Source of the DNA: Enhydrobacter aerosaccus
GTDB lineage: Bacteria; Pseudomonadota; Alphaproteobacteria; Reyranellales; Reyranellaceae
Direction of reading: 5' to 3'
Length of the DNA stretch: 32,000 nt
Assembly (NCBI RefSeq): GCF_900167455.1
Contig: NZ_FUWJ01000008.1
Coordinates: 153,378 to 185,377 of the forward strand
Under the pieces are notes generated by a model. It did no database searches. It saw only the letters and a list, made by a program, of their open reading frames with translations, and was not told the origin of the DNA. Below, one piece after another: positions 7,614 to 30,979 of this stretch (position 1 is its first letter; the number at the start of each line of letters is the position of its first letter). Made by a program: the position numbers and the translations under genes.

Positions 7614-7883
7614 TCTTCTTGTACTCACATTCGCCAGAGGGTTTGGCGCAGCGATCGGCAACTTGGCAGGGGCAGCTCTTCAGACTCCGGTGCTCGGTAC
7701 GGGGCCTCTCCTGATAGTGACTTGGCCGCCGACCACCGCAGCAACACGCGTCCTGCTGGCTGCGTCGATGCATCTCGATCAACGCCTTTCCCTACCAGCA
7801 CGTGGCTGTCGAAAGAGCACATCACACCAGGGAGGACTCGCTTGAGTACTGCCGAGCCATTTGGAGAAGGCGAGGTCCCCCCG

Positions 7884-9278: not shown

Positions 9279-11559
9279 TGGCGCCAACGCTTTGTGCCGC
9301 CAGCAGGGCCGCCGCCTCGATGATCTGTCCGTAGCTGAGACCGGCATCGTTCATGGGCACGGCGCTCGGCAACAAGACCTCGAAATCCGCCTCGGTAAGC
9401 AAATGTGCGGCGCGCTCGGTCAGCCGTTTGTTCTGGAACACGCCACCGACGAGTCCGACCTTGCAGATTGGAGTCGTTCGGCGGATCAGTACCGCCTGGT
9501 CGCGAATGGTTTCCGCCAGCCACTCGTGGAAAATGGCGCTGCGCTCGCCGACCGATCGGGAAGCATCTGCCACGATCCCGATCAGCGGCTCCCAATCGGC
9601 GATCGTCAGGCTGGCCGGCGTCTGTAGGGCGATCCGTGTCGCGTCGCCGAGATTGGCTTCCGTCTCCAGCCAAATCGCCGCCTGTGCCTCGTACGTCGCC
9701 CGACCGGCAAAGCCCAGCATGGCAGCCACCGCGTCGAACAGCCGTCCGACCGACGTCGTGACGGGACAGTTGATGTTGCTTTCCCAGGCCCGTCGCAACA
9801 GCCTGGTCTCCACGGCTACGTCGTCCGAATCCAGGCCGGCCTCCCAGCAGAGACCCAGGGCGCAGCGCCAGGGCTCGCGTGCGGCTCGTTCTCCACCAGG
9901 CAGTCGAAACGGTCGCAGCGAGGCGACGCGACGCCAATGACCTGGTCCTCCCAGGAAAGCCTCGCCGCCCCACAACGTGTCGTCATCCCCTTTGCCCACG
10001 CCGTCCCAGGTGAACACCAACATGCCGGAGGATTGCTTATGTTCTCCCGCCAACGCCGATGCGTGCGCCCGATGATGTTGTACGGCAATCAAGGGTAACC
10101 CGCTGCGTCGGGCCCAACGCGTCGAGCTGTAGTCGGGATGCTGGTCGCAAACGATGGCTTGCGGCTGCACGCCGAACAACGTCTGAAGGTCCAGTACCGT
10201 ATCGACGAACAGTGACTGAGTTCGCAGCGATCCCAGATCGCCAATGTGGGGAGACACCACCGCGCGGTTCGCCCAGGCTAGCGCAACCGTGTTCTTCTTC
10301 TGACCACCGACTGCCAGCAATGGGCGGTCCAGCGCGACCGGCAGGTGGAGCTGTAACGGCGCGTTGCCGCGGCCCAGGCGCAACGGCCGCACGTGGCCTG
10401 CAATCCGTCGGCAAACCGGATCGTCGGCGGGCCGCCGTATCGGCCGGTTGTGAATCAAGAAGGCGTCCGCGACATCCTTCAAGCGCTCAACGGCTGCGCT
10501 CTCGTCGATCTCCACCGGATCCCCGGAGCGATTGCCGCTGGTCGCAACGACCGGACCGCCAAACCCATCGAGCAGCAGCGCATGGAGCGGGCTGTAGGGG
10601 AGCAGGAGGCCAATTTCACGCAGCCCCGGCGCTATGGAGGAGGCAAGCGCCTGCGGCCGCTTGGCGGCAATGACCACAGGTCGTACGGGATCGAGCAAGG
10701 CGACAGCCTCTTCGTCGGTCAATCGGGCAATTGCCCGCGCTTCGGCCAAACCGTCGGCCCCACGCTCCCTGACCATGACGGCCAACGGCTTGTCCGGCCG
10801 TTGCTTACGCCGCCTCAGATGGCGCACCGCGGCCTCGGACCGAGCGTCACAAAACAGATGAAATCCACCGATCCCCTTGACGGCCACAACGCGTCCCTGG
10901 CGCAGATGCGCAATGACCGCCCGGAGGGCTTGTTCACCGGTTGATTGGCCAGGGGACATCTTAGGGTCGCCCGGCACTACAAACTGCAGCCTGGGGCCGC
11001 AGTCGGTGCAAGCCAGCGGCTGCGCATGATATCGACGATCGTCGGGTCGCTCATACTCCGACTGGCATGCTGCGCACATCGAAAAGGCCGCCATCGCCGT
11101 GTTGGGCCTGTCGTACGGCAGAACATCGATGATCGTATATCTCGGGCCGCACTGCGTGCAGTTGATGAACGGATAGCGATATCGCCGGTCGGACGGATCG
11201 CGTAGTTCCATCAAGCACGCGGGGCAAGCGGGATAGTCCGGCGGAATCGACGCCATTGCCATCTCGCCTTGAGCGCTGGTGTCGATCGAGAAGCCGGCAA
11301 GAGCGGCCCAGTCCAGCCGCTTGCGGGTCACCAGCCGCGGCCGCGCGAAGGCGGGTGCCCTCTCGATTAGCTTGCCGGAGAAAGCGTCAATCGCATCTTC
11401 CGCTCCTTCCAGGCGGATCAGTACCCGGGCACCTTCGTTGCGCACCCAGCCGGCCAGATGATGATCCCGAGCCAGTCGCCAGACAAAGGGGCGGAAGCCG
11501 ACGCCTTGAACGCGCCCTTCGACGAGCAGCAGAACCGACGCGAGAGACCCGACGGTCAC
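9268..11559 (-). CDS. hypF: Carbamoyltransferase HypF
   Basis: Acylphosphatase domain (LLLVEGRVQGVGFRPFVWRLA), two zinc-finger pairs (CPACLMEL..CTQCGPRYT; CAACQSEY..CTDCGPRL), and YrdC-like and Kae1-like regions. I prefer the GTG start at 11559, 1 nt after the endopeptidase stop. The listed ATG at 11643 is an alternative. Confidence 0.92.
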   Translation of the reverse strand: MTVGSLASVLLLVEGRVQGVGFRPFVWRLARDHHLAGWVRNEGARVLIRLEGAEDAIDAFSGKLIERAPAFARPRLVTRKRLDWAALAGFSIDTSAQGEMAMASIPPDYPACPACLMELRDPSDRRYRYPFINCTQCGPRYTIIDVLPYDRPNTAMAAFSMCAACQSEYERPDDRRYHAQPLACTDCGPRLQFVVPGDPKMSPGQSTGEQALRAVIAHLRQGRVVAVKGIGGFHLFCDARSEAAVRHLRRRKQRPDKPLAVMVRERGADGLAEARAIARLTDEEAVALLDPVRPVVIAAKRPQALASSIAPGLREIGLLLPYSPLHALLLDGFGGPVVATSGNRSGDPVEIDESAAVERLKDVADAFLIHNRPIRRPADDPVCRRIAGHVRPLRLGRGNAPLQLHLPVALDRPLLAVGGQKKNTVALAWANRAVVSPHIGDLGSLRTQSLFVDTVLDLQTLFGVQPQAIVCDQHPDYSSTRWARRSGLPLIAVQHHRAHASALAGEHKQSSGMLVFTWDGVGKGDDDTLWGGEAFLGGPGHWRRVASLRPFRLPGGERAAREPWRCALGLCWEAGLDSDDVAVETRLLRRAWESNINCPVTTSVGRLFDAVAAMLGFAGRATYEAQAAIWLETEANLGDATRIALQTPASLTIADWEPLIGIVADASRSVGERSAIFHEWLAETIRDQAVLIRRTTPICKVGLVGGVFQNKRLTERAAHLLTEADFEVLLPSAVPMNDAGLSYGQIIEAAALLAAQSVGANGQ

Positions 11560-11560
11560 G

Positions 11561-12043
11561 CTAGCTCCATCCGCGGCGCAACAGCTGGAGGAGCTTATCG
11601 CGCACAAGCGGAAGCGATCGTTCCACTTCCGGCGAGAGCCCAACTTTGAAGTCCAGGCTCTTGGGTTGGACGCCTATCAGGGCGCGCTCTAACGGCAGCA
11701 CCTCCTGCAGGCGGGCGACATCCAGAATATCGCGCAACGCTACCTCATGGGCGGTGTGCCGCGCGCCTCCCAGCTGACGGTCCATGTCGATGCCAAGAAA
11801 GCAGCGCACCGTGCCCGGTTCTGCCGCCAAGTGTGCCGCGTCGACCACGACGAGACGGTTGCATCGCTCGATATGCGACAACAGTTCGAATACTGCCGTG
11901 CCGCCGTCCAGAAGAAGCAGGTCCGCGGGGAAATCGGAAGCGTCCTGGGACCTAAGATAGGCAATCGCGCGAGTCCCCAGGCCATCGTCCGCGTAGGATG
12001 AATTGCCGTAACCCAGCACCAGCGTCGAGAGCCGATTCTGCAT
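11561..12043 (-). CDS. HyaD/HybD/HupD-family hydrogenase maturation endopeptidase
   Basis: Start at ATG 12043 (MQNRLSTLVLGYGNSSYADDGLG), which is the G-x-G-N-x-x-x-x-D-D-G-x-G signature. About 160 aa, the typical size. Sits 2 nt after the hypD stop. Confidence 0.85.
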   Translation of the reverse strand: MQNRLSTLVLGYGNSSYADDGLGTRAIAYLRSQDASDFPADLLLLDGGTAVFELLSHIERCNRLVVVDAAHLAAEPGTVRCFLGIDMDRQLGGARHTAHEVALRDILDVARLQEVLPLERALIGVQPKSLDFKVGLSPEVERSLPLVRDKLLQLLRRGWS

Positions 12044-12045: not shown

Positions 12046-13173
12046 TCAGGCCGCGACGCCAGTACGCCGATGAGGCGCGTGTGTGCGGTTGTGTAGGCCC
12101 GAGGTCCACCAGATGTGACAGGCGCCTTCGTCCGACACCATGCACGGTCCGATCGGACGTCGGGGCGTGCAGGCTTTGCCGTAGAGCTTGCAGTTCGTGG
12201 GCACCACCTTGCCCAGGACCACACGGGCGCAATCGCAGCCCGGCGGCATTTCTCCTGCGTGTCGACGGGCGGCGTCCTGTGGTGACGCCAGCAGGCTGCG
12301 CGCGTCACGGCTTGCAAAAGTTTCTGAAAGGGCAAAGCCGGAGCGGGCAATCGTGCCAATGCCGCGCCAATTCGCATCCACGATCCGCATCGAGTGCGAC
12401 AACTGCTGCTGCGCCACGCGATTGCCGCCGGGCCGTACGATCGCCGGATAGCAGTTCTTCAAGTGGGCCGTGGTCGCGAGAAGCTGCGTCAGGACGTAGT
12501 AGGTGGCGGCCAGCAGGCTTTCCGCCGTGAAGCCCGCCACGGCAATCGGCAGGCCATAGCGTTCCGCCACGAACGACCATTCTTCCGGCCCCATCACCGT
12601 GGCGACGTGACCCGGTGCAATCAGGGCATCGAACCCTGGCTTCTCTGAAGCGAGCAGCATGTCGACCGCCGGCCAGGTCAGCCGGCCTGACACCAGGAGG
12701 AAAAGATTGTCTGGCACGCCTTGGCACAGCATCGCGGCGACCGGCGCCATCGTGGTCTCAAAGCCAGCGGCGAAGAAGACCACGCGCTTGTCCGGAAGCG
12801 CCCGCGCAATCGCCACAGCCTCCCGCGGACTGGCAATCGGCCGGATGTCGGCACCGGCGCCGCGCGCATCACTGAGGCAACGCGGATCGCTTCTGGCGGC
12901 GTTGATCGGCACACGCAGCATGTCCCCGAACGCAACGACGACGACATCGCATTCGCGCGCAAGCCGCATGGCGTCGCAAATGTCTTCTTCGGGGCAGACA
13001 CAAACCGGACAGCCCGGTCCGGGAATGATCCGAATTGTCTCGGGCAGGGCCGCCCGCAACCCGGTGTGAGACAGCGTGCGTTCGTGTCCGCCGCAGACAT
13101 TGAGAATGCTAACCGGGTGATCCAATGGCAGATCGCGGAGTCGATCCAACCAGACCTTAGCCGTGGCGCTCAT
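12046..13173 (-). CDS. hypD: Hydrogenase maturation protein HypD
   Basis: 375 aa with the CGGHE and GPGCPVCV motifs. Confidence 0.93.
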   Translation of the reverse strand: MSATAKVWLDRLRDLPLDHPVSILNVCGGHERTLSHTGLRAALPETIRIIPGPGCPVCVCPEEDICDAMRLARECDVVVVAFGDMLRVPINAARSDPRCLSDARGAGADIRPIASPREAVAIARALPDKRVVFFAAGFETTMAPVAAMLCQGVPDNLFLLVSGRLTWPAVDMLLASEKPGFDALIAPGHVATVMGPEEWSFVAERYGLPIAVAGFTAESLLAATYYVLTQLLATTAHLKNCYPAIVRPGGNRVAQQQLSHSMRIVDANWRGIGTIARSGFALSETFASRDARSLLASPQDAARRHAGEMPPGCDCARVVLGKVVPTNCKLYGKACTPRRPIGPCMVSDEGACHIWWTSGLHNRTHAPHRRTGVAA

Positions 13174-13939
13174 GGGCCGACTCTCCTATGACGGTTGCCG
13201 GCTTCGCCGCTCGACGATCCAGCCGCTGCCGATCAAGCCAGTCGATCCATGGGTCAAGGCCGCCCTTGCTGCGCACCGAGATGCCGATGACGGGAGAGAC
13301 ACAGCCGATCTCCCGGACTGCCGCTTCCGCCCGGTCGAAACGAAAATCGTCAAAGTGCGGCAGCAAATCGGTCTTGCTGACCAGAATGATGTCGCTGCCC
13401 CGGAACATGATCGGATACTTGGCCGGCTTGTCGTCGCCTTCGGGCACCGACAGCAAGGTGACGTTCCGATGCTGGCCAAGGTCGAACGACGCTGGGCAGA
13501 CGAGGTTCCCTACGTTTTCGATGAAGAGAACATCGAGGCCCTGTAGCGGCATGTCGTGCAAGGCCGCGTGGATCATTTGCGCGTCGAGATGGCAGGCCGT
13601 TCCAGTGGTGATCTGCACTGCCGGAACACCATGTCTCCGGATTCGCGCCGCGTCGTTCTCAGTTGCGAGATCTCCCTCGATGACGCCGATGTGCAGTCGA
13701 CCTTTCAGGGCTTCGATCGTCGCTTCGAGGAGCGCGGTCTTGCCGGACCCCGGTGCCGACATAAGGTTCACAGCGAAGACATTCGCCTCGTCTAGATGCG
13801 CCCGATTATGCTTCGCCATCCGATCGTTCTCGGCCATGAGATCGTGGAGCACGGTCAACGACCGGGGCTGACGGCGTGGCGTTGAGTCATCGTGATCATG
13901 GCGCGAATCATGCGCCGCGCATCCACAGTCATTGCACAT
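13157..13939 (-). CDS. hypB: Hydrogenase nickel-incorporation GTPase HypB
   Basis: N-terminal MCNDCGC metal site plus a short His/Asp-rich stretch, P-loop SAPGSGKT, and ENVGNLVCP and SKTDL motifs. Confidence 0.93.
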   Translation of the reverse strand: MCNDCGCAAHDSRHDHDDSTPRRQPRSLTVLHDLMAENDRMAKHNRAHLDEANVFAVNLMSAPGSGKTALLEATIEALKGRLHIGVIEGDLATENDAARIRRHGVPAVQITTGTACHLDAQMIHAALHDMPLQGLDVLFIENVGNLVCPASFDLGQHRNVTLLSVPEGDDKPAKYPIMFRGSDIILVSKTDLLPHFDDFRFDRAEAAVREIGCVSPVIGISVRSKGGLDPWIDWLDRQRLDRRAAKPATVIGESAHERHG

Positions 13940-14294
13940 GAGCTTCCTCCGCTGTTTCCAGCTCCAAGCTTTGGAAAATCAGGTCCTTCCCGCTGGCGAC
14001 ACGAACGTCGGCTGTATCGCAGGCCGCGCATCGCATATGACTGAGCCGGCCCGGCGTCTGCCTGCCGCACCGGCGGCATTCGAGAATCAATGGAGCCCTC
14101 TCAATGACGAGCTGAGCGTCATTGGCGACCGTGCCTCGCCGGGCGGCAGTGAAGGCCCGTTGCAGCAGCCCCGCCTCCACCCCCGCCAAAGGTCCGATTC
14201 GGACGGTCACGGACAGGACCCTGGCCGCGCCGTGCTTTCGGGCAAAGCGAGCGACCTCGTCGAGCAGAGCCTGACATATCGAAAGTTCGTGCAC
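13929..14294 (-). CDS. hypA: Hydrogenase nickel-insertion protein HypA
   Basis: 121 aa. MHE N-terminus and a zinc site CRRCG...CAAC. Confidence 0.9.
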   Translation of the reverse strand: MHELSICQALLDEVARFARKHGAARVLSVTVRIGPLAGVEAGLLQRAFTAARRGTVANDAQLVIERAPLILECRRCGRQTPGRLSHMRCAACDTADVRVASGKDLIFQSLELETAEEAHVQ

Positions 14295-14304: not shown

Positions 14305-14529
14305 TCACTGTCCGGAGAGAGCTTCGTCGATCACTTGCCAAGTTGCCGCTGCGTCCGTGCCGCTGATGACCTGGATTGCATAGCCAACGTGGACAAGTAC
14401 GTAATCCCCTGCGAGGACCGAGCCCTCTTCCAGCATGAAGAGACTGACATCGCGGGACACGCCACGGACCGAGCACCGGGCGACGAACCCGTTGATCGAC
14501 TCGACCCGCATCGGGATGGCCAAGCACAC
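14305..14529 (-). CDS. hypC: Hydrogenase assembly chaperone HypC/HupF family
   Basis: 74 aa. MCLAIPMRV N-terminus with the essential Cys2. Confidence 0.9.
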   Translation of the reverse strand: MCLAIPMRVESINGFVARCSVRGVSRDVSLFMLEEGSVLAGDYVLVHVGYAIQVISGTDAAATWQVIDEALSGQ

Positions 14530-14543: not shown

Positions 14544-15398
14544 CTAGAGGACCTCTAGGATCAATGAGAAGCGTTCATTGGCGACTTTGCGTTGCTGTTC
14601 GGTCAGGTCCGGCAGGAGCCGGGTGAAAGCCGTCGCAACGTAGCGAAGCGCCGCAATTCGCGCGGAAAGACGCCGTTCCTGCTGGCGCACCAGGGCTACG
14701 GCGTCCAACGGCTCGTTCGAGGGCGTCTGTTCCGTGAATGCCCGGCGGTCCGCCGCTGCTGCTGAACGTACCGATTCGGCAAAGCCAGTCCAATTCGCAG
14801 GTTCGGGCTGACCGATTCCGATCTCGTCGCGGAATCGCGTCAATCGGACTTCGACTTCTGCCGGCGCTACTGGTTGCCGGTCGGCAACAGAAGGAGGGGC
14901 AGGGGCAGGGCGCGCAGCAGGCATGGGCATGGTATGCGGCTCTGGTGATGCTGCAGATCCCGCTCCCTGCTGGGGGGCTGGCGGGCGTCCGTGCATTGAC
15001 ATCGTGGGCGACCCGGAGAGCTCTCCAGTGCCGCTTGAGGGTGCCGGTTCCGCAGTGGCTGCGGAGGCAGGGGGAGAAGCCCCGGTGCTGCCGCCTGGAC
15101 AGAAGAAGCTGAAGTCGCCGGTCGCCCTGCCTTTGTCGAACTCGGCCCAGTTCGGCTGAACACGATGGGCAGGAAGACTGTCGAAGGTTCCTGTCTGATG
15201 GCACATCGCACAGTGGGACTGGTGAGCCGGCACACGCAGGCGCCCTTGCGAAATGCAGTAGGTGTCGATCAAGTCGCCATAGCCTTGGCTTGGCCTTGCC
15301 ATCGTTGACACGCCGCCGGCGAGGGCGAGCGTCGTGATCAGCAGCCCGGCCAAGGTCATCTTACGGTCAAGCATGCTGGTGTTCCGCGTACTCGGCAT
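14544..15398 (-). CDS. Secreted fusion protein: N-terminal domain with one CxxCH (putative monohaem cytochrome c), Pro/Ala-rich linker, C-terminal LTXXQ (Spy/CpxP-like) domain
   Basis: 284 aa. Begins 6 nt after the hydrogenase large-subunit stop. Hydrophobic leader (MTLAGLLITTLALAGGVSTMA), CAMCH motif, and C-terminal LPDLTEQQRKVANERF. The C-terminal ~100 aa align by eye with the C-terminus of the protein at 18292..19011. The start codon is uncertain (M1, M9 or M14). Confidence 0.6.
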   Translation of the reverse strand: MPSTRNTSMLDRKMTLAGLLITTLALAGGVSTMARPSQGYGDLIDTYCISQGRLRVPAHQSHCAMCHQTGTFDSLPAHRVQPNWAEFDKGRATGDFSFFCPGGSTGASPPASAATAEPAPSSGTGELSGSPTMSMHGRPPAPQQGAGSAASPEPHTMPMPAARPAPAPPSVADRQPVAPAEVEVRLTRFRDEIGIGQPEPANWTGFAESVRSAAAADRRAFTEQTPSNEPLDAVALVRQQERRLSARIAALRYVATAFTRLLPDLTEQQRKVANERFSLILEVL

Positions 15399-15404
15399 GG
15401 CGCC

Positions 15405-17129
15405 CTAGAGGACCTTGACCTCGACAAGCTCACGTCCGCCCGGGTCGATGACGTGCACGGCGCAGGCCAGGCAAGGGTCGAAGCTGTGGATGGTCCTCAG
15501 GATCTCGAGCGGCCGCGTAGCATCGGCGAGACGATGCCCTCGCAGGGCGGCCTCATAGGGGCCATCTTGTCCCCGCGCGTCGCGCGGACCCGCGTTCCAG
15601 GTGCTGGGAACGACCGCCTGATAGTTTGCGATCTTGCCTTTCTCGATGGCAACCCAGTGTGCCAGCGCGCCGCGTGGCGCTTCCATGAACCCTGCGCCAC
15701 GGGCCTGAGGTGGCCACGTTGAGGGATCGAACAGGCTGTCGTCGAACGTGGCTCGATCGCCGGCCGCGATGTTGCGCAGCAGCGCGCTGTGCATGTCCGC
15801 GAGCGCATCAGCCAGAATCTTCGTTTCAAGGGTTCGTGAGGCAACGCGGCCCAACGTTGAGAAAAGACCTTCGATCGGCAGATCCAGCCGCTTAAGGCTG
15901 CTATCGATGAGTTCTCTCGCCTTGCGATCTCCGGTCGCATAGAGCAGCAGCATGCGCGCCAGCGGGCCGACTTCCATTGGTTTGCCACGCCAACGCGGTG
16001 ACTTGATCCAGGAATAGGAACGATCGACGTCGAGGTGCTCGTACGGTGGCTGTGGTCCCGTGTAGTTCGGGCGCGTTTCGCCATCGTACGGGTGAAGCGG
16101 CTTGTGCTTGCCGACCGAATAATCGTACCAGGAGTGGCTCACGAACTCCTGGACCTGCGCCGGATCTTCGAGATCGACGGGTAGCACCTTCGACAAATCG
16201 CGATCGAGAATGGCGCCGCGCGGAAACAACAGGGTCGACGAATTGAATGTATCGGTCCCGCGTGGAAGATCACCATAGCATAGGAAGTTGCCGGTGCCTT
16301 CGCCTACCTTGCTCCAATCCTTATAGTAGCTCGCGATCGCCAGGGTGTCGGGTAGGTAGACGTGATCTACGAAGTCACGCATCTTCTCGATAATGACGCC
16401 CACCTGCTTCAGGCTTGCAGCAGATACGGCCGTCACCTGCTCGCCCTCGCTGATCGTACAGGGAGCGCCCCCGACCACGAAGTTCGGGTGCGGATTGCGG
16501 CCGCCGAAGATGGCGTGAATCTTGACGACCTCGCGTTGCCACGCCAACGCCTCCAGGTAGTGGGCAAAGGCCAGCAGATTGACCTCGGGGGGCAACTTGT
16601 ACTCGGGGTGACCCCAATAGCCGTTGGTGAAGATCCCGAGCTGGCCACCGTCAACAAAGCGGCGCAGTCGGTCGCGGACAGTCGCGAAATAGTCCGTGCT
16701 GTTGTTGGTCCAGGGGCTGAGAGAGCGCTGCAATCGTGACGTTGCACCGGGGTCGGCGCTGGCCGCCGACATCACGTCCACCCAGTCGAGGGCATGAAGA
16801 TGATAGAAGTGCACCACATGGTCGTGGACGAACTGCGTCGCGATCATGATGTTGCGGATGAGCTGGGCGTTCGGGGGAATCTCGTATCCCAGAGCGAACT
16901 CGACGGCGCGCACCGATGCGATGCTGTGAACCACCGTGCACACGCCGCAGAATCGTTGCGTGAACGCCCAGGCATCGCGTGGGTCACGTCCGTTCAGGAT
17001 CAGTTCGATGCCACGCATCATGGTGCCGGAGCTCGAAGCGCGGGTGATGAACCCGGAGGCATCGGTCTCCGCCTCGATCCTGAGGTGCCCTTCGATGCGG
17101 GTCACCGGGTCAACGACGATGCGCGCCAT
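15405..17129 (-). CDS. [NiFe]-hydrogenase large subunit (group 1, periplasmic uptake type)
   Basis: 574 aa. N-terminal RIEGH and RFCGVCTVVH motifs, C-terminal DPCLACAVH followed by a 15-aa extension (VIDPGGRELVEVKVL) for endopeptidase processing. GGAG-type RBS about 10 nt upstream. Confidence 0.95.
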   Translation of the reverse strand: MARIVVDPVTRIEGHLRIEAETDASGFITRASSSGTMMRGIELILNGRDPRDAWAFTQRFCGVCTVVHSIASVRAVEFALGYEIPPNAQLIRNIMIATQFVHDHVVHFYHLHALDWVDVMSAASADPGATSRLQRSLSPWTNNSTDYFATVRDRLRRFVDGGQLGIFTNGYWGHPEYKLPPEVNLLAFAHYLEALAWQREVVKIHAIFGGRNPHPNFVVGGAPCTISEGEQVTAVSAASLKQVGVIIEKMRDFVDHVYLPDTLAIASYYKDWSKVGEGTGNFLCYGDLPRGTDTFNSSTLLFPRGAILDRDLSKVLPVDLEDPAQVQEFVSHSWYDYSVGKHKPLHPYDGETRPNYTGPQPPYEHLDVDRSYSWIKSPRWRGKPMEVGPLARMLLLYATGDRKARELIDSSLKRLDLPIEGLFSTLGRVASRTLETKILADALADMHSALLRNIAAGDRATFDDSLFDPSTWPPQARGAGFMEAPRGALAHWVAIEKGKIANYQAVVPSTWNAGPRDARGQDGPYEAALRGHRLADATRPLEILRTIHSFDPCLACAVHVIDPGGRELVEVKVL

Positions 17130-17163
17130 CGAACATTTTCTCCCTCAAGCCGGGCTCGTTTGG

Positions 17164-18132
17164 CTAGAACGGCTTTGTGTAGAAGCCGCCAGGGCGATCC
17201 CAGAAACTCGGCTGCGCACAGCCCAGACAACCGTGGCCGGAATACATTGGAAAGCTGGTCCCTTGGTTCCACTTGATCGTCGTGCAGGCATTGAACGTTA
17301 GTGGCCCCTTGCAGCCGAGATCCTTGAGGCACCAGCCCTTGCGAGCGCCTTCGTCGTCAAAGCTGCGCGCGAACTGCTGGCGCTCGAAGAACGGCAAGCG
17401 CGTGCAATTGTCGTGAACGGTCTTGCCGAAGAAGATCTTGGGCCGGCGCAGATCGTCGAGGGCGGGAATCGAACCGTAAGTGAGATAGTAGGTGACAAGG
17501 CCTGTGATCACTTCGGGCACGGGGGGACAACCAGGAATGTTGACGATTGGAGCCGTCACCTTGCCGGCCGCCACGAGGTCGCCGAGCGCGTCTGCCGCTC
17601 CGAAAGCACCGGAAGGATTTGGTGCGGCCGCCCCGATGCCGCCAAAGGCGGCACACGTACCGACCGAGGCAATAACCGCCGCCCCTTGGGCGGCATTGCG
17701 GACCAGCGACAGGCCTGCCTTGCCTCCGGTCGTTGACCGCGCGCCCGCATCCTTTCCGGGAATTGAGCCATCGACGATGAGGAAATACTTGCCCCAATTC
17801 TGCTCGATCGCCCGATCGCGCGCTGCCTCCGCCGCTGCGCCGGCTGCCGCTTGAAGCACGTGGTGGTAGTCCAACGAGATGGAGTCGAGGATCAGACTCT
17901 CCAGAGTTGGCTCGAAGGAGCGGAGCAGCGATTCGCTGCAGCCGGTGCATTCTTGTACCGACAGCCAGATCACGCTTGGCCGGGGCTTGGACGCAAGAGC
18001 TTGCGCAATCACTTCCGCGCTTCCCACCGGCAAGGTCAGCACCGAGCTCATGTACCCACAGAACTTCAGGAAGCCGCGCCGTGACACACCTTGGTTTCGC
18101 AATTCTTCGTAGAGCGATGGACGGACTCCCAT
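17164..18132 (-). CDS. [NiFe]-hydrogenase small subunit, Tat-exported, no C-terminal membrane anchor
   Basis: 322 aa. Tat motif SRRGFLKF, proximal cluster ECTGCSES and GTCAAFGG, GCPP, distal/medial cluster cysteines (HDNC, GCKGP, GHGCLGC). The protein ends 12 aa after FWD. Confidence 0.95.
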   Translation of the reverse strand: MGVRPSLYEELRNQGVSRRGFLKFCGYMSSVLTLPVGSAEVIAQALASKPRPSVIWLSVQECTGCSESLLRSFEPTLESLILDSISLDYHHVLQAAAGAAAEAARDRAIEQNWGKYFLIVDGSIPGKDAGARSTTGGKAGLSLVRNAAQGAAVIASVGTCAAFGGIGAAAPNPSGAFGAADALGDLVAAGKVTAPIVNIPGCPPVPEVITGLVTYYLTYGSIPALDDLRRPKIFFGKTVHDNCTRLPFFERQQFARSFDDEGARKGWCLKDLGCKGPLTFNACTTIKWNQGTSFPMYSGHGCLGCAQPSFWDRPGGFYTKPF

Positions 18133-18291
18133 GGCACCGCCTCCTTCCGACTAGCGACGGTCTCTTAGTTGGCTTTTGGCGACACCAATGCGTGAGAAGC
18201 GATATCGCGCCCCCAGCTGAGGTTGGGGGATACTGGGGTTTACTTCAGCCAAGGACGCGATATCGCCGGGGGGCCACGGTGCGCTCGCTTG

Positions 18292-19011
18292 CTACCGAAT
18301 GCCCATGTGCGGCGCGATGAGTTCGTTGGCGATTTTCTTCTGCTTGTCGTCGAGCGCCGCATAGAGCTTCGCGTAGGCGGGCTTCAACGCCTTCACGCTT
18401 TCCAGGCGCACCGTGAGCCAGCGCTCTTGATCATCCAGTCGGTCGGCGGCGGTTGTCGTGGTCCGCTGCGGCTGACCCTTTTGGGCGTCCTCGACGCGCT
18501 TTGCATTCGTGCGCATAACGGTCGCAAACTCTGTCCATGTCGGCATCTGCGGTTCCGTGATCTTCAGCTCAGCATGAAGGTAGGCGATGCGACCGTCGAT
18601 GTGGTCCGTGGGCAGATCCATCATGCGGGTTTGCATCATCATCTGCATCATCTGGGGGCCCATCATGGCTCCGGGTCCCATTGGTCCCGCCACTTGACCC
18701 TGCACGCCAGGACCTTGCATCGCTCCGCACTGTCCGCCAGAGCAATCACCGGGTGTCTGCATGTTCTGCATGCCCGAGCCACCCATGTTGTGGCCTTCCA
18801 TGCCCATGCTCTTTCCCTGGCTCTGCATGCCCTGGCCTTGCATGCCTTGGCCCTTCATACCCTGACCCTTCATGCCCTTATCGTCGTCCATCATCTGCGC
18901 AACGACGATCTTTGTCGGATCGAGGGTCTGCGAAGAACCGATCGCCGGGGCAAGTACGATGGTCGCCATCGTCGCTAGGCTTGCAGCAGATAAGAAGTTC
19001 ATACGTGTCAT
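18292..19011 (-). CDS. Secreted Met/Gly/Gln-rich protein with a C-terminal LTXXQ (Spy/CpxP-like) domain
   Basis: 239 aa. Signal peptide (MTRMNFLSAASLATMATIVLAPAIG), a KGMKGQGMKGQGMQGQGMQSQG repeat tract plus MMGPQMMQMMMQTRMM, and a helical C-terminus ending LDDKQKKIANELI. AAAGGAA RBS upstream. Confidence 0.7.
   Translation of the reverse strand: MTRMNFLSAASLATMATIVLAPAIGSSQTLDPTKIVVAQMMDDDKGMKGQGMKGQGMQGQGMQSQGKSMGMEGHNMGGSGMQNMQTPGDCSGGQCGAMQGPGVQGQVAGPMGPGAMMGPQMMQMMMQTRMMDLPTDHIDGRIAYLHAELKITEPQMPTWTEFATVMRTNAKRVEDAQKGQPQRTTTTAADRLDDQERWLTVRLESVKALKPAYAKLYAALDDKQKKIANELIAPHMGIR
18823..18880 (-). repeat. About 3.8 tandem copies of a 15-bp unit encoding the G-M-x-G-Q pentapeptide repeat
   Basis: Plus-strand units ctgcatgccctggcc / ttgcatgccttggcc / cttcataccctgacc / cttcatgccctta, read directly from the sequence. 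Confidence 0.85.
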
Positions 19012-19719: not shown

Positions 19720-21672
19720 GTGAAGAGTGAATATCCGCCGGCCCGCAATAAGGCGATGCGCCGTGGCTTGATGCTTCTGGCGGTAGCCGTTTTTGGAGGT
19801 GCAGCTCCCGCTGCTGCACAGCCCGCAGATTCCCATTCCGAGCATCATCCCGGTCAGACGCCGTCCGCTCCGTCTGCCGGCCAACCGGCACCATCATCCG
19901 CCGGCGGCATGGAGATGATGGGCTCGATGATGGGCGGCCCACCCAGAAAGCAGCTCTATCCCCAGCTGATGGAGTTGCCGGTCATGACCCCGGAAGCCCG
20001 TCTCAAGATTGAGACGGACGCGCGAGCCCGAATTGTCACCGGCAACGCGGCACTCGTACAGGGGCAGGACGATTATCACCGCGCTGCGATGAATAATGAC
20101 GCGGCCGCAATGTCAGCCGCCTTGTCTCGCCAGCGTGCTGCGTTGGCAGAGATCGAGAGCGGCACATCAGCGTTGCGTGCGCTCGCAGAGGGGAGTCCGC
20201 CCCACGAGATTGCCTTGAGCTGGTTCCGTGACCAGATGAATCTCGCTCGGCCGACCTCGCCAGTACAAGAAGAGGTTGGACCGCTCAACCTATCTTGGTT
20301 CCACATCGTCTCCATGACGGTGGTACTGCTGTTCGCGCTGACGATGCTTGTCGTCGGTGTTGGGCGTCGACATCGCTCGCTTGCCTTGGTCAATCGTTTG
20401 ACTCGACCAGCCGGCCCCCAACCAGCGCAGGGTCGTGCGCCCGTACCGATCTCTGCCTCCCCTACGCCCACGACTCCAGCGGTATCCCCTCCACCACCGC
20501 CGTCGACAAAGGTCCAGCAGTCACCTCCGCTACCATCGCCTCCAACGTCTATATCGACATGGTCCGGAACGCTGCGCGTCGCCAGCATTGTTCGTGAGAC
20601 ACCTCTCGTAAAGACCTTCCGGCTGGTTGAGCCAGGAGGTGGCGCTATCCCGTTCTCCTATGCCCCCGGCCAGTTCTTGACTTTCTCAGCGCAGATCGAC
20701 GGCAGACTGGTGCGCCGATCCTACACGATCGCCTCGCCACCAACACGGACCTCGTACGTGGAGGTCACCGTCAAGCGCGAGGAGGAGGGGGCGTATTCAC
20801 GCTTCCTGCACGACAGCGTCGTGCCTGGCAGCGTGCTGCAGGTTCGTGGCCCCTCGGGTGTGTTCACCTTCGATGGGGGAAACGCCGAAAGTATCGTCCT
20901 GATCGCCGGCGGCGTCGGTATCACGCCCATGATGTGCGTGATCCGCTATCTGACGGACATGAGCTGGCCAGGCGAGATCTTCCTGATCCTTGCTGCACGG
21001 AACACCGACGAGCTGATCTTCCGTGAAGAGCTCGAGTACCTGCAGCGCCGTCATCCCAAGCTCCATGTTGTGGCGTCGGTCGGCGCGAGGTCGGAAGGAT
21101 CAGCATGGATGGGCTTGGAAGGCCAGATAACGAAGGACGCACTCGCCCATGCAGTACCTTCACTAGAAATTCGACGCGTCCACCTGTGCGGTCCACCGCC
21201 CATGATGGAGACTATACGGCGCATCCTGAGCGAATTGGGTGTGCCAGCCAACCAGGTCAAGACTGAAGCTTTTGGTCCGGCCACCGGGGCCGTGCCGCCG
21301 CCGCGTCCTCTGCCGCCCCCACCGCCACCTTTGATGGTGACGGAGCTTGTCGAGCGGGTCGAGGCTGCCACACCTCCGTTGATGGAACCCATACCGGTGG
21401 CGGGTCCGGCGACGGCGACCATCTCCTTCGACCGGTCTCACAAATCAGCGCCTCTCCCGCCCGACAAGACGGTCCTTGAGGTGGCGGAGTCGATCGGCGT
21501 GCCGATCGACTACTCCTGCCGCGTAGGGACCTGTGGCCTCTGCAAGACCAAGTTGCTGGCTGGTCAGGTTACTATGGAGGTTCAGGACGCGCTGACGGAC
21601 GACGATAAGGCGTCCGGGATAATACTCGCCTGCCAAGCCCATTCTCTGGGCGACATCACGGTCGACGCCTGA
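19720..21672 (+). CDS. Membrane-tethered oxidoreductase: signal peptide, His/Met-rich periplasmic helical domain, one TM helix, FNR-type FAD/NAD(P)-binding core, C-terminal plant-type [2Fe-2S] ferredoxin domain
   Basis: 650 aa. MRRGLMLLAVAVFGGAAPAAA/QP leader; HSEHH and GGMEMMGSMMGG; TM at about residues 191-215 followed by RRHR; Pro-rich linkers; RRSYTIAS (FAD), VLIAGGVGITP (NAD(P)), HLCGPPPM; CRVGTCGLC...ACQA (2Fe-2S). GTG start at 19720, or ATG at 19756. Confidence 0.8.
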   Translation: MKSEYPPARNKAMRRGLMLLAVAVFGGAAPAAAQPADSHSEHHPGQTPSAPSAGQPAPSSAGGMEMMGSMMGGPPRKQLYPQLMELPVMTPEARLKIETDARARIVTGNAALVQGQDDYHRAAMNNDAAAMSAALSRQRAALAEIESGTSALRALAEGSPPHEIALSWFRDQMNLARPTSPVQEEVGPLNLSWFHIVSMTVVLLFALTMLVVGVGRRHRSLALVNRLTRPAGPQPAQGRAPVPISASPTPTTPAVSPPPPPSTKVQQSPPLPSPPTSISTWSGTLRVASIVRETPLVKTFRLVEPGGGAIPFSYAPGQFLTFSAQIDGRLVRRSYTIASPPTRTSYVEVTVKREEEGAYSRFLHDSVVPGSVLQVRGPSGVFTFDGGNAESIVLIAGGVGITPMMCVIRYLTDMSWPGEIFLILAARNTDELIFREELEYLQRRHPKLHVVASVGARSEGSAWMGLEGQITKDALAHAVPSLEIRRVHLCGPPPMMETIRRILSELGVPANQVKTEAFGPATGAVPPPRPLPPPPPPLMVTELVERVEAATPPLMEPIPVAGPATATISFDRSHKSAPLPPDKTVLEVAESIGVPIDYSCRVGTCGLCKTKLLAGQVTMEVQDALTDDDKASGIILACQAHSLGDITVDA

Positions 21673-21673: not shown

Positions 21674-22354
21674 ATGGGCGACAAAGAGCGAGTTGTCGTC
21701 CTGGCGCTCGGAACACTGCTGCTCTTCCTTGCGCCTGGCTATCTCTTGCACGTTTCGCCGCGCTTTGCGGGCAGCCTGGCCGGCGGAGTACTGGGGATCA
21801 TGGCAGCAACTTTCATGCTGCTGGCGCTCGTCTACCCCGCCGTCAAGTACATCGGTTGGCTGAAAGTTCGCGTGACGCGGCATGTTTCGCTGGGCCGCCT
21901 TCTTAGCTTCCACATCTACGGCGGGCTTCTAGCATCCCTGATTGCCATCCTGCATTCGGGACACAAATATCAAAGCGGCCTGGGCATCGCGCTGATTGCG
22001 GATATTGTGATTGTGATCGGGACGGGCTTTATCGGCCGTTACTATCTTGCACATCTCGGGACGGAAGTACGCCGGCAGCAGGCGCTGCTCGGGACGTTAC
22101 GCACGGCCTATGATCGCATCGCGCTTCACCTCGGGCGCCAAGCCACTGTCGGCGCAGCCGCACCGGATGTCCCTATCCTGACACTCGTCGATGCGATTGC
22201 AGACATCGAATACTCGCTCGGGATGCGCGACACCGCCAAACGTATCGCCGGTCGATGGATTGTCGTCCACATCGTCGCGTCGATTCTAATGTACGGGCTC
22301 CTGTTGCTGCATATCGGCGGAGGAATCTATTATGGGCTGCGGTGGCTTCCATGA
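21674..22354 (+). CDS. Integral membrane protein, about 5 TM helices, with H-x13-H on two helices (putative dihaem cytochrome b, ferric-reductase-domain/DUF4405-like)
   Basis: 226 aa. H80/H94 in predicted TM3 (FHIYGGLLASLIAILH) and H199/H213 in TM5 (VHIVASILMYGLLLLH). Starts 1 nt after the reductase stop. Confidence 0.6.
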   Translation: MGDKERVVVLALGTLLLFLAPGYLLHVSPRFAGSLAGGVLGIMAATFMLLALVYPAVKYIGWLKVRVTRHVSLGRLLSFHIYGGLLASLIAILHSGHKYQSGLGIALIADIVIVIGTGFIGRYYLAHLGTEVRRQQALLGTLRTAYDRIALHLGRQATVGAAAPDVPILTLVDAIADIEYSLGMRDTAKRIAGRWIVVHIVASILMYGLLLLHIGGGIYYGLRWLP

Positions 22355-23091
22355 AATGGAAGGCGCTTATTTACCTGTTGCTTGTAACGGTGACCGTCGC
22401 CAGCTCTATCATGGCTGTCGGTACCGTCTATCGTAAGGGATCGGCAAGCTTGCCTCACTGGGCGACATTGGTGAGGCCGGGCGCCCTTTCAACCAAGCAC
22501 GCCTTTCTCTCCAATCAGTGCGAGGCGTGCCATACGCCGGTCAAGGGCGTGGAAGCCGCAGCCTGCATCTCATGTCATGCGGCCGATGCCACGACGCTCG
22601 CCCGCGAATCGACGGCCTTTCACGCGACCATTCAGACCTGTGCGACATGCCACGTCGAGCATTTGGGTGAAGTCCGTCCGACCCGCATGGACCACGATGC
22701 TCTGATCGCAATCGGGCGCTCGAGGCTCGTGAACCAACCGTCTCCCTGGTTTGCGTCACTGTCGGGTCACGCGCCCGCTGACTTGGGCACGCTCGATTGC
22801 TTCGCCTGTCACAGCAACCGCAGTCCGCACCGCGACCTGTTCGGTAAGGAGTGCGCTGCCTGCCATTCGACGGCGACGTGGAATGTGGCGGGCTTCAAAC
22901 ACCCGTCGCCCAGTTCGACCGAGTGCGCGCAGTGCCATCAAGCCCCGCCCAGCCATTACATGGGTCACTTTGAGATGGTCTCGGAGAAGGTGGCGGGCCA
23001 GGAGCATGCCCGGGTCGAGCAATGCTATCTCTGCCATCAAACTGATGCTTGGAACGACATCAGGGGGGTGGGCTGGTACAAACATCACTAA
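22351..23091 (+). CDS. Membrane-anchored heptahaem c-type cytochrome (cytochrome c3/multihaem family)
   Basis: Start at ATG 22351, overlapping the upstream stop (ATGA). N-terminal TM anchor (ALIYLLLVTVTVASSIMAVGTV). Seven CxxCH motifs: CEACH, CISCH, CATCH, CFACH, CAACH, CAQCH, CYLCH. Confidence 0.85.
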   Translation: MKWKALIYLLLVTVTVASSIMAVGTVYRKGSASLPHWATLVRPGALSTKHAFLSNQCEACHTPVKGVEAAACISCHAADATTLARESTAFHATIQTCATCHVEHLGEVRPTRMDHDALIAIGRSRLVNQPSPWFASLSGHAPADLGTLDCFACHSNRSPHRDLFGKECAACHSTATWNVAGFKHPSPSSTECAQCHQAPPSHYMGHFEMVSEKVAGQEHARVEQCYLCHQTDAWNDIRGVGWYKHH

Positions 23092-23182: not shown

Positions 23183-23469
23183 TCAGCGAAGGGTGAACTA
23201 CCAGTAAAGTTCCTCCCTCATCGCTCTGGCCGTACTTCGTTGGTGGTTTCGGAACCTTGGTCCGCTGTTTAACAATCACGGGCTCCTGCATCCTCACAAG
23301 CCCCCGCCTTGCGGCTCATCTGCCATGGTCAATGGCATGACCCCAGCCATTCGCGGATCTACAGCGCGCGCCAGTGCACGCGTTCCTCAGAAGGGGCCAC
23401 ATTCGAAGTGTCCAACGACTTCTGGCGGCGCTGTCTCGCCTCGATCAACACAGAGGGGCCGACGGACAA

Positions 23470-23712
23470 ATGGATCATACAAATAAGCCAGCTTGGTGGC
23501 GTCAACCGTTCCCCTGGGTGCTGATCGGCTTCCTCACTGCAGGCGGTTTTCTCCTGTTTACCGAACACCGAGCGCACGTTCTAGGTGTTCTGCCCTTCCT
23601 CCTTCTCTTGCTGTGTCCTGTGATGCATCTCTTCATGCATCATGGGCACGGCGGTCGCAGCGGGCAGCGACGCAACGCTGATGATCGGCTTAACGAAACC
23701 CATCACGACTGA
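23470..23712 (+). CDS. DUF2933-family small membrane protein
   Basis: 80 aa from ATG 23470. One TM helix, then EHRAHVLGVLPFLLLLLCPVMHLFMHHGHGG, the pattern I associate with DUF2933. Confidence 0.65.
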   Translation: MDHTNKPAWWRQPFPWVLIGFLTAGGFLLFTEHRAHVLGVLPFLLLLLCPVMHLFMHHGHGGRSGQRRNADDRLNETHHD

Positions 23713-24404
23713 TGACGAAGGCGATCTTGCAAGATCACTCTCCTGCCTATGGGCTCTGGTTTCTGGTCATCGTCAACTCGGTGATCTTCATCGGATTCGC
23801 CTTCGCCTTCTTCAAGCCGCATACAGGGCGTGACTGGCGTTCCTTTGGCGCCTTCAGTGCCTTCTTGGTTGCACTGTTCGCCGAAATGTATGGCTTTCCG
23901 CTGACGATCTACGTCTTGTCAGGTTGGCTGCAGAGTCGCTTCCCTAATGTTGACTGGTTCTCCCACGACGCCGGTCATCTCCTCGAGATGATATTTGGCT
24001 GGCAGGCAAATCCACACGCCGGCCCGTTCCACGTGTTGAGCTTCCTCTTCATCGGTGCGGGCTTCTTGCTGATATCGGTAGGCTGGAAGGCACTCTATCA
24101 GGGCCAACGACAGCACCAGCTGGTCACGACTGGCGTTTATGGCTACATGCGTCATCCCCAATACGTCGGCTTCATCCTTGTGATGTTCGGCTTCCTGCTT
24201 CAGTGGCCGACCTTGTTGACCCTGACGATGTTCCCCGTGCTCGTCTTCATGTATGTGCGCTTGGCTCGCGTCGAGGAGCGGGATGCCGCCGCTGAATTCG
24301 GCAGTCTGTATGAACGCTATCGACACGACGTTGCTGGCTTCGTCCCGCGGCTATCGGGATTCTTTTCCGCACCCTCTCGCCGGGCTGCGAACGATGAAGA
24401 ATGA
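23712..24404 (+). CDS. Isoprenylcysteine carboxyl methyltransferase (ICMT)/PEMT-like membrane methyltransferase family protein
   Basis: 230 aa, multi-TM. Carries the LVTTGVYGYMRHPQYVGF signature and RLARVEERDAAAEFG. The ATG overlaps the DUF2933 stop (TGATG). Confidence 0.85.
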   Translation: MTKAILQDHSPAYGLWFLVIVNSVIFIGFAFAFFKPHTGRDWRSFGAFSAFLVALFAEMYGFPLTIYVLSGWLQSRFPNVDWFSHDAGHLLEMIFGWQANPHAGPFHVLSFLFIGAGFLLISVGWKALYQGQRQHQLVTTGVYGYMRHPQYVGFILVMFGFLLQWPTLLTLTMFPVLVFMYVRLARVEERDAAAEFGSLYERYRHDVAGFVPRLSGFFSAPSRRAANDEE

Positions 24405-26358: not shown

Positions 26359-26530
26359 GACAGGTCTCCTTTGATGAAACCTTGGACCAAGTGTGCGGTT
26401 CACGCTGTTCAATCTGAGACTCGAATTCAATCGTGCCAATGATCTCGCATCAGCTGTCCGGGGACGACCAGCACAGGAGTAGTTCTTGCATTTATCGCTA
26501 ATGGGCGACGCAATCGAATCCATCGACATT

Positions 26531-27936: not shown

Positions 27937-28082
27937 GCCACATCCGCGTGCTTCAGGGTTGGCCGAACGGCACACAACCGATGGCGCTTCGACTATGCGT
28001 CAGAAGCCCGGAACAAGCCAGTATCATCGACTGCTGCATGAAAAGACTACGCTAACCGTAGGCTCTGCCGGCCCGGTTTTCC

Positions 28083-30940: not shown

Positions 30941-30952
30941 GACTTGCTATCT

Positions 30953-30969: not shown

Positions 30970-30979
30970 TATTCAAGCC

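Follow-up and report, generated by a model that had tools for sequence, protein, structure and literature searches.

How does a soluble periplasmic [NiFe]-hydrogenase hand on its electrons when none of the usual partner proteins is encoded beside it? The question is raised by a 32,000-nucleotide stretch of the genome of the alphaproteobacterium Enhydrobacter aerosaccus (RefSeq assembly GCF_900167455.1, contig NZ_FUWJ01000008.1, positions 153,378 to 185,377 of the forward strand; the whole stretch is called the window here, and positions are counted from its first nucleotide). In the window the hydrogenase genes hynS (small subunit) and hynL (large subunit) are followed by a gene for a fusion protein, in which an N-terminal domain with a CxxCH motif (the N-domain) is joined to a domain of the LTXXQ family. 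The partner type defines the physiology of periplasmic hydrogenases and, to our knowledge, few such types are known i.e. cytochrome b, Isp1/2, HybA/B and cytochrome c3. An earlier reading of the window, made from the sequence only, had put the fusion protein forward as a dedicated electron acceptor and a neighbouring heptahaem/dihaem module as the next step. The results below suggest that the fusion protein is very probably a hydrogenase-specific periplasmic partner and plausibly a haem-c electron acceptor.

We called genes by listing and translating open reading frames (ORFs), and then scanned the proteins of the window against Pfam and NCBIfam. All of the minus-strand genes named by the sequence-only reading were recovered, i.e. 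an LTXXQ gene, hynS, hynL, the CxxCH-LTXXQ gene, hypCABD, an endopeptidase gene and hypFE (Table 1). HynS carries a twin-arginine translocation (Tat) motif, SRRGFLKF, and the ligand motifs of three iron-sulphur (FeS) clusters (ECTGC, GTCA and GCPP; HDNC with CLKDLGC; NAC with GCLGC), and scores 385 bits against TIGR00391 (cut-off 179.5). Its Tat leader and standard proximal-cluster pattern (ECTGCSES with GTCAAFGG) are as first described, with Gly at both positions of the extra Cys residues of group 1d enzymes. The lack of a membrane anchor was likewise borne out, although the protein ends 10 rather than 12 amino acids (aa) after FWD. In HynL the motifs RFCGVCTVVH and DPCLACAVH and a 15-aa C-terminal tail were all found where expected; an endopeptidase gene lies in the same cassette, and the tail is predicted to be the extension that this protease cleaves.

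The sequence-only reading had compared the enzyme with the soluble hydrogenases of Desulfovibrio, and this label did not hold, as the large subunit is closest to the group 1e enzyme of Allochromatium vinosum and not to group 1b. The best match of HynL in the PDB was 3MYR_B from A. vinosum (857 bits, E=5e-257, 65% identity), which was 138 bits ahead of the best group 1d enzyme (719 bits), with Desulfovibrio enzymes at ∼543 bits; the best match of HynS was 3MYR_A (E=3.6e-106). A group 1b (Desulfovibrio-type) assignment was ruled out by these similarity scores, and a group 1d (O2-tolerant) assignment by the Cys pattern, the similarity and the lack of a cytochrome b gene. Homologues of the large subunit fall into three layers, with at least 82% (574 aa), 73-76% and 66-71% identity; the middle layer includes Bradyrhizobium diazoefficiens, and all of the 120 homologues listed have at least 66% identity. 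Judged by PDB similarity and by a single neighbour-joining tree of large subunits (rooted on Salmonella Hyd-5, no support values), the enzyme appears to belong to a derived clade related to group 1e, i.e. to the Isp-type hydrogenases.

We surveyed the gene neighbourhoods of 27 loci, which were mapped by tblastn with the window's proteins as queries; about 10 kb of flank was inspected per locus and counts refer to distinct lineages, of which ∼12 are of the window type. Three architectures were found. In the Isp type (L026, 69% large-subunit identity) the order is hupH, hynS, isp1, isp2 (Fer4 and CCG domains), a gene for a 149-aa protein and hynL, and the small subunit (361 aa) has a C-terminal hydrophobic anchor formed by a transmembrane (TM) stretch. 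The PKD type (L012, from Thiorhodococcus, and L025; 68% identity) has hynS for an anchorless small subunit of 336-338 aa, hynL and a gene for a 615-664-aa protein with PKD and MopE motifs; hupH was seen ahead of hynS in L025. The window type has hynS (322-325 aa, anchorless), hynL, the CxxCH-LTXXQ gene, hypCABD, the protease gene and hypFE, with a convergent hupH. In the window itself the gap between hynS and hynL is 34 nt, and neither isp1 nor isp2 was found.

The gene order around orthologous hydrogenases, which had been proposed as a check, was kept in every related locus with enough flank, at large-subunit identities of 69-98% and in alpha- and gammaproteobacterial records as well as on the conjugative plasmid pBBta01. 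In all such loci the CxxCH-LTXXQ gene lies immediately between hynL and hypC. The hyp genes had been listed correctly by the sequence-only reading, which had however overlooked a HupH_C-like gene; this gene occupies the same position in all related loci and belongs to the conserved cassette, so that the accessory set is hyp plus hupH. Pfam and NCBIfam scans agreed with the earlier statement that the window holds no gene for cytochrome b, Isp1/2, HybA/B or a Ni permease. A canonical partner was also looked for around the related hydrogenases, and neither cytochrome b nor Isp1/2 nor HybA/B was found within 10 kb in the ∼12 related lineages. In the neighbour-joining tree the CxxCH-LTXXQ-type enzymes are monophyletic with the PKD type as their sister, and the Isp-type enzymes (L026 and 3MYR) and the Alteromonas enzyme branch below both. 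The large subunit does fall into a group with known partners, the Isp proteins, but isp1 and isp2 have been lost in its own clade; their loss and that of the small-subunit anchor coincide with exactly the clade that carries the CxxCH domain.

We read the locus as a cassette that is complete in itself and moves horizontally, and that encodes a soluble periplasmic uptake [NiFe]-hydrogenase of group 1e descent. Because a TrbI gene lies near its start, the window is part of a conjugative element; in Bradyrhizobium sp. BTAi1 the cassette is on the conjugative plasmid pBBta01, where BBTA_RS37530 is the fusion gene, with IS66 elements between the cop and hydrogenase genes, and insertion sequence (IS) and integrase genes flank L020. 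In some lineages a Ni transporter gene stands directly upstream of hynS (L011, 6753-7427; L024, 4506-5123; L020, 3118-3705), and its product is either NicO-like (by a GLRHALEPDH motif only) or of the HupE/UreJ family (PF04955).

The CxxCH-LTXXQ ORF begins 6 nt past hynL, as first reported, although the true start is possibly M9 at 15374, and its product is identical (100%) to an NCBI entry of 284 aa named 'LTXXQ motif family protein'. It consists of a signal peptide, the CxxCH domain, a Pro/Ala linker with HxMxM motifs and the LTXXQ domain, in agreement with the layout given earlier, except that the CxxCH domain measures ∼70 aa (A34-G102) and not ∼90 aa. The motif itself, CAMCH, is formed by residues 63-67 behind an N-terminal signal-like hydrophobic segment. 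Among the ORFs of the window CxxCH occurs once in the fusion protein and seven times in the heptahaem cytochrome, and in no other. Loss of the motif in homologues had been named as a result that would count against the proposal; it was invariant in every homologue found. Across 19 diverse N-domain sequences the invariant positions were an Ala at the predicted signal-peptidase site, one Cys, the CxxCH motif and a final F-C, i.e. C48, C63, C66, H67 and C100 within the domain. Within the alpha clade, identity to the window protein is 74-96% for the N-domain, 48-95% for the LTXXQ domain and 21-77% for the linker, and the N-domain is about as constrained as HynS and HynL.

The family defined by the N-domain is small. 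The fusion protein had 12 cluster-level homologues in an index of 5.8 billion proteins, and a profile of the N-terminal 73 residues matched only 22 representatives in a set of 1.84 billion proteins; scans against Pfam and NCBIfam gave nothing for the N-domain, a word-indexed protein search with the diverse N-domain alignment gave no matches, and a scan of genome contigs returned one already-known metagenome-assembled genome only. A PDB search with the N-domain profile gave 28 matches, 26 of them to c-type cytochromes, only over the neighbourhood of the CxxCH motif. The proteins encoded after hynL in L012 and L025 start with the same N-domain, continue with PKD/MopE repeats and end with two further CxxCH motifs, a make-up that resembles that of multihaem cytochromes. 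Other members are fused to cadherin-, PKD- or He_PIG-like repeats. In L028 (the contig of P0142) a 673-aa protein combines the N-domain with He_PIG/Big_9 repeats and is encoded between two multihaem cytochrome c genes and a cytochrome b gene, on a 4.8-kb contig without a hydrogenase; the CxxCH-domain family is therefore not confined to hydrogenase loci.

On balance we favor the reading that the fusion protein is the dedicated periplasmic redox partner of HynSL and that its N-domain is a monohaem c-type module, because of the strict synteny, the invariance of the motif, the loss of isp1/isp2 and of the anchor, and the reuse of the domain in electron-transfer contexts. These results fit a dedicated partner that is encoded where genes for cytochrome b or the Isp proteins would otherwise stand. 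In the mechanism that we propose, the ∼70-residue N-domain would bind one c-type haem at the invariant CxxCH, probably clamped by a disulfide between the two other invariant Cys residues, and the distal FeS cluster of HynS would pass its electrons to this haem. Through the Pro/Ala linker, which contains Met/His motifs, the N-domain would be tethered to the helical LTXXQ domain. The latter is expected to serve in dimerisation or in docking to a downstream partner and not in catalysis; no His, Cys or Met is conserved in its alignment. From the fusion protein, electrons might go on to the periplasmic cytochrome c/terminal oxidase pool, to the heptahaem cytochrome in loci that encode it, or to a copper-related acceptor. 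Of the earlier proposal, the dedicated partner is thus upheld by the invariant CxxCH, the fixed slot between hynL and hypC, the lack of a canonical partner and the reuse of the domain in the sister clade; the heptahaem cytochrome as the obligatory next step is not.

Several observations weigh against this reading. No conserved His or Met that could serve as the distal (sixth) haem ligand was found among the 19 diverse sequences. AlphaFold2 (AF2) modeled the isolated N-domain poorly, with a mean predicted local distance difference test (pLDDT) score of 64.6, and the model matched no known fold in a Foldseek search of the PDB. Attachment of haem is read from the CxxCH motif, and four invariant Cys residues plus a His are just as compatible with a metal site or with a redox-active disulfide. 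A role in metal handling would also agree with the copper-gene context and the Met-rich linkers. The LTXXQ proteins known to us are chaperones and metal-stress proteins rather than electron carriers, and the large-subunit tree is one neighbour-joining tree whose branches carry no support values.

The same observations lead to an alternative in which the fusion protein is not a cytochrome but a periplasmic metal-handling or chaperone factor. The Cys4-His set and the Met-rich linker would serve either in Cu(I) binding or as a thiol-disulfide switch; in a copper-loaded periplasm, the Spy/CpxP-like domain would protect the copper-sensitive FeS hydrogenase or be a stress sensor, and electrons would go to a generic acceptor encoded elsewhere. 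In favor of this alternative, both LTXXQ proteins of the window, when searched against Pfam as had been suggested, exceed the gathering score of PF07813 (57.3 bits for the upstream protein and 26.6 bits for the fusion protein, cut-off 24.3); in the latter the match covers residues 201-275 and rises to 29.3 bits for the isolated domain. In the AF2 model of the full fusion protein (pLDDT 64) only the all-helical LTXXQ hairpin was confident (84-95), and its top Foldseek matches were Spy, CpxP and CnrX, weak and not significant (E>=0.56). All 19 linkers keep MxM, HxMxM or MxWMxLGxPxGH motifs, with a Met content of 2.5-10% (at least 3.8% in 18 of the 19). A typical Cu(I)-type Met-rich region in the upstream paralogue, copper genes within 10 kb in most lineages (see below) and the missing distal ligand point the same way. 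However, even very distant members all keep the His that immediately follows the second Cys, a hallmark of haem c rather than of CxxC copper or thioredoxin sites; the sister-clade proteins have two more CxxCH motifs; and a form of the domain that lacks LTXXQ is encoded among multihaem and cytochrome b genes. The lack of conserved His, Cys and Met in the fusion's own LTXXQ domain also counts against this alternative, which would moreover leave the enzyme without an encoded acceptor in all of the loci examined. We therefore regard a pure metal-handling role as unlikely.

A different partner for the hydrogenase could be the three-gene module on the plus strand of the window, which encodes an FNR-Fer2 protein, a candidate dihaem-b membrane protein and the heptahaem cytochrome. 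In the FNR-Fer2 protein a Met-rich periplasmic domain and a single TM helix are combined with an FNR-like FAD/NAD(P) domain and a 2Fe-2S ferredoxin domain. Its N-terminal ∼225 aa (19720-20400) consist of a signal-like segment, a Met-rich stretch (GGMEMMGSMMGG), a helical periplasmic region and the TM helix; the same layout is seen in the Alteromonas homologue, and the periplasmic part matches no Pfam family. The membrane protein gave only far-sub-threshold matches (Ferric_reduct PF01794, E=0.44; DUF4405, E=0.21), but two H-x13-H pairs are conserved between it and its Alteromonas counterpart, and the BTAi1 homologue is annotated as 'iron reductase' at NCBI. We infer that the module may be a split NOX-like conduit from cytoplasmic NAD(P)H to the periplasm.

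If this conduit were the real partner, the fusion protein would do no more than connect HynS with the heptahaem cytochrome as an adaptor. Periplasmic H2/H+ would then be coupled to NAD(P)(H) in the cytoplasm, in that H2 would drive the reduction of NAD(P)+ or the proton-motive force would assist H2 release. The four conserved TM His residues (the H-x13-H pairs) are consistent with such a route, as is gene order: the module adjoins the cassette in the window, L005, L010, pBBta01 and L024 (in L024 on the same strand, directly upstream), and it lies, as orf1 and cyt, directly upstream of the hynD-hupH-hynSL genes of Alteromonas macleodii. The FNR-Fer2 gene recurs in L005, L010, L013, L024 and Alteromonas. 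However, the module was not found within 10 kb in L001, L004, the L009-type loci, L011, L014 and L021, and since it is absent from at least six lineages it is not an obligatory acceptor; the heptahaem/dihaem module as a general onward acceptor, as envisaged earlier, is contradicted by its presence beside the cassette in only four LTXXQ-type lineages plus Alteromonas. Alteromonas, in turn, has the module but no CxxCH-LTXXQ gene. Its Orf1 and Cyt were dispensable for methyl-viologen (dye-linked) hydrogenase activity in E. coli (PMC3102683), although in vivo coupling lies outside that assay. Inward transfer from H2 to NAD(P)+ would also oppose the membrane potential with a drive of only ∼100 mV, as inferred from standard potentials. 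For these reasons we give the conduit very little credence as the real partner, and the fusion protein remains our preferred candidate for that role.

The strongest contextual signal around the cassette is its association with copper genes, which the sequence-only reading had mentioned only in passing. A bona fide copper gene lies within 10 kb in 9 of the 12 distinct lineages, and in the other three (L007, L020 and L024) the flanks are short or IS-interrupted. Within this distance, genes for the multicopper oxidase CopA and/or CopB occur in the window, L001, L004, L011, L013, L014 and L021; CusF-like genes in the window, L001, L003, L005 and L013; an apparently exported copper storage protein, Csp, in the L009-type loci, L011, L013, L014 and L021; and PF13801 metal-resistance genes in L010 and L011 (the L013 homologue, found by tblastn, is annotated as 'periplasmic heavy metal sensor'). 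The window further contains genes for a Cu P-type ATPase, a CsoR-like protein, a DUF2933 protein and an ICMT-family protein. No cop genes were found in the outgroup loci L012, L025 and L026.

This neighbourhood could simply reflect hitch-hiking on shared mobile fitness islands and plasmids, the enzyme being an ordinary energy-conserving uptake hydrogenase that feeds the aerobic chain. The TrbI gene of the window, the conjugative plasmid of BTAi1 with IS66 between its cop and hydrogenase genes, the IS and integrase genes around L020, and the Alteromonas islands in which the hydrogenase is found together with Hg, Cu and Czc resistance genes (PMC4781885) are all consistent with this explanation. 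However, the copper genes change in order, strand and identity between loci (CopAB may lie upstream or downstream, and Csp and CusF also occur), which argues against the simple descent of a single frozen island. Despite this reshuffling the linkage is seen at large-subunit identities from 98% to 69%, and its retention through rearrangement argues for selection. The lack of cop genes in the outgroups and the Met/His motifs in the fusion protein itself also speak against mere hitch-hiking, which we nevertheless consider a serious possibility, if short of an even chance.

The converse proposal is that the cassette is an accessory of periplasmic copper homeostasis and not primarily an energy module, with low-potential electrons from H2 passing via the fusion protein and its Met/His linker to a copper redox step. 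This step could reduce Cu(II) to Cu(I), which exported Csp, CusF or Met-rich LTXXQ proteins would then capture, or it could keep copper-binding thiols in the reduced state; in either case it would run parallel to the NAD(P)H-fed FNR-Fer2/dihaem-b/heptahaem conduit. We put this forward as speculation that is probably wrong, but if it were true the window would hold the first case of a hydrogenase whose role is dedicated to metal homeostasis. The question that it raises, i.e. whether H2 oxidation is functionally tied to copper handling, might bear on the place of the Alteromonas hydrogenase in a metal-resistance island. The Alteromonas and pBTAi1 papers merely note that hydrogenase and metal-resistance genes co-occur, and our literature search (LTXXQ with hydrogenase, hydrogenase with copper resistance, hydrogenase with Csp) found neither a functional link between hydrogenase and copper nor such a fusion gene.

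The LTXXQ gene upstream of hynS encodes a protein whose N-terminal half is full of MxxQGM/MMxxQMM repeats and whose C-terminal half is the LTXXQ domain. That the two LTXXQ domains of the window are paralogous, as noticed by eye, is supported by 26% identity over 97 aa (E=9e-10). The gene is not, however, a fixed companion of the hydrogenase operon; we considered it as a constant member and rejected this because it is missing from some loci and changes strand in others. In the window, L001, L005 and L007 it points the same way as hynS, and it is inverted, beside Csp and copA, in L004 and L014; no homologue adjoins hynS in L003, the L009-type loci, L011 and L024. A gene for a Met-rich 126-aa protein takes its place in L011, and the sole relative in L010 is a Metal_resist gene ahead of the FNR-Fer2 gene. 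An LTXXQ or Metal_resist gene heads the FNR-Fer2 module in BTAi1, L010 and Alteromonas. The gap between the upstream gene and hynS can fold into an RNA hairpin with 25-bp arms, which recurs in L001 and L007, where one change is compensatory and several are one-sided. Because no U tract follows it, the hairpin may act in processing, stability or attenuation rather than as a canonical terminator.

Table 1. Positions of the hydrogenase cassette and other features in the window
Feature	Positions	Strand	Basis
Met-rich LTXXQ protein, exported, 239 aa	18292-19011	-	PF07813 E=2.7e-15, 57.3 bits
Intercistronic RNA hairpin, gap between LTXXQ gene and hynS	18199-18266	-	-43.9 kcal/mol, z=-4.2
hynS, [NiFe]-hydrogenase small subunit, 322 aa	17164-18132	-	PF01058, PF14720, TIGR00391
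hynL, large subunit, 574 aa	15405-17129	-	PF00374 E=1.7e-226, 753 bits
CxxCH-LTXXQ gene, third in operon, 284 aa	14544-15398	-	Pfam and alignments
N-terminal CxxCH domain of fusion, A34-G102	15093-15299	-	CAMCH at 15198-15212
LTXXQ domain of fusion, D173-L284, Spy/CpxP-like, helical	14547-14882	-	PF07813, 26.6-29.3 bits
hypC, 74 aa, GTG start after GGAGG	14305-14529	-	TIGR00074 E=3.9e-21
hypA	13929-14294	-	PF01155 E=1.4e-28
hypB	13157-13939	-	PF02492 E=3e-20
hypD	12046-13173	-	PF01924 E=7.8e-115
Maturation endopeptidase, HynD/HupD type	11561-12043	-	PF01750; TIGR00072 E=8.4e-33
hypF (maximal ORF)	9268-11643	-	HypF domain set
hypE (maximal ORF)	8253-9347	-	AIRS and AIRS_C
HupH_C-like gene, convergent with hypE	7722-8249	+	PF04809 E=1.3e-25
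FNR-Fer2 protein, 650 aa	19720-21672	+	PF00970, PF00175, PF00111
Membrane protein, candidate dihaem-b, ferric-reductase-like	21674-22354	+	Two H-x13-H pairs
Heptahaem c-type cytochrome, 7 CxxCH	22351-23091	+	Homologue of Alteromonas 'cyt'
CusF-like	5167-5877	-	
CopA multicopper oxidase	3281-5167	-	
CopB	within 2526-3584	-	
Cu P-type ATPase	28592-30940	-	Translation inspection
CsoR-like repressor	∼30950-31255	+	Translation inspection
TrbI	31-720		Pfam

The endopeptidase gene is listed from its likely ATG at 12043, the maximal ORF starting at 12232. Rfam and tRNA scans of the window returned nothing, and promoter and terminator scans gave counts at chance level. A gene pair for DUF2933 and an ICMT-family methyltransferase lies near a heavy-metal P-type ATPase gene in the window (23374-24404) and beside the hydrogenase cluster of Alteromonas macleodii (L027, 25243-26209); the hydrogenase is therefore not all that the two islands have in common. 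Two paralogous small exported proteins with a DxCC(G/N)VACH motif (27520-27975 on the minus strand and 31614-32000 on the plus strand, the latter cut by the window end; 30% identity, E=8e-6, no Pfam family) lie on either side of the Cu P-type ATPase/CsoR region, and they may be copper-island proteins that have yet to be characterised. A small exported His-rich protein (26095-26529, minus strand), which may bind metal, recurs in L001 (18393-18623) and L003 (11372-11551), just beyond the HupH-like gene. An SbmA/BacA-like membrane protein gene at 6437-7714 is also kept in L005. A perfect FNR/Crp-type box, TTGATCTGGATCAA, is found at 28083-28096 near the Cu-ATPase gene and far from the hydrogenase genes, and a second perfect box, TTGATTTGGATCAA, lies ∼140 nt upstream of hynS in L003 and L010; genes for Crp/Fnr-family regulators are nearby in the window (26531-27469), L007 and L010. 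Together these hint at O2-responsive control, the number of boxes in the window being at chance level.

Comparison with known systems places the locus beside, but apart from, each of them. The closest solved relative of both subunits is the group 1e HynSL enzyme of A. vinosum and Thiocapsa roseopersicina (3MYR), with which the window shares the standard proximal cluster of O2-sensitive type, the Tat leader and a HupH-like gene. Unlike the Isp-type 1e systems, the window has neither isp1 (a membrane dihaem b) nor isp2 (HdrD-like) between hynS and hynL; unlike L026 of this type, its small subunit has no C-terminal TM helix, and a CxxCH-LTXXQ gene follows hynL instead. The Desulfovibrio 1b enzymes are likewise soluble, anchorless periplasmic heterodimers for which a c-type cytochrome is the expected acceptor, but they are far more distant (543 bits, versus 857 bits for 3MYR). 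Their cytochrome c3 is a tetrahaem protein of unrelated sequence, the gene for which is not known to belong to the hydrogenase operon, whereas the candidate in the window has one CxxCH in a new domain and an LTXXQ fusion.

The cluster of Alteromonas macleodii 'Deep ecotype' (orf1/cyt/orf2-hynD-hupH-hynSL-hypCABDFE, in a metal-resistance island or on a plasmid) resembles the window in its anchorless S-L pair, its full hyp set and its setting in mobile metal-resistance DNA. The two share homologous genes for a Met-rich/LTXXQ-like protein, the FNR-Fer2 protein, the dihaem-b-like protein and the heptahaem cytochrome, and nearby for DUF2933, ICMT-family and P-type ATPase proteins. Alteromonas differs in its large subunit (57% identity), in the gene after hynL (a 71-aa TM protein), in having the protease gene and hupH upstream and in the presence of orf2, which encodes a 407-aa membrane protein; published assays of its HynSL are of dye-linked activity only (PMC3102683).

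Spy, CpxP and ZraP share with the LTXXQ regions of the window the PF07813 match and a periplasmic metal-stress setting, and with the fusion's LTXXQ domain a long helical hairpin, as predicted; they differ in that this domain lacks conserved metal ligands, and the structural matches are not significant. We know of no LTXXQ family member with a fused CxxCH domain, nor of one whose gene lies within a hydrogenase operon. The locus points to a further solution to the partner problem, in which a previously unclassified CxxCH domain, joined to other modules in sister clades, would replace Isp1/2 in one branch of group 1e. As the cassette is compact, mobile and self-maturing, and is present on the conjugative plasmid of BTAi1, a sequenced and presumably tractable isolate, this idea is directly testable. 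Judged from its genes, the system is best described as a 1e-derived soluble hydrogenase with a putative new partner domain.

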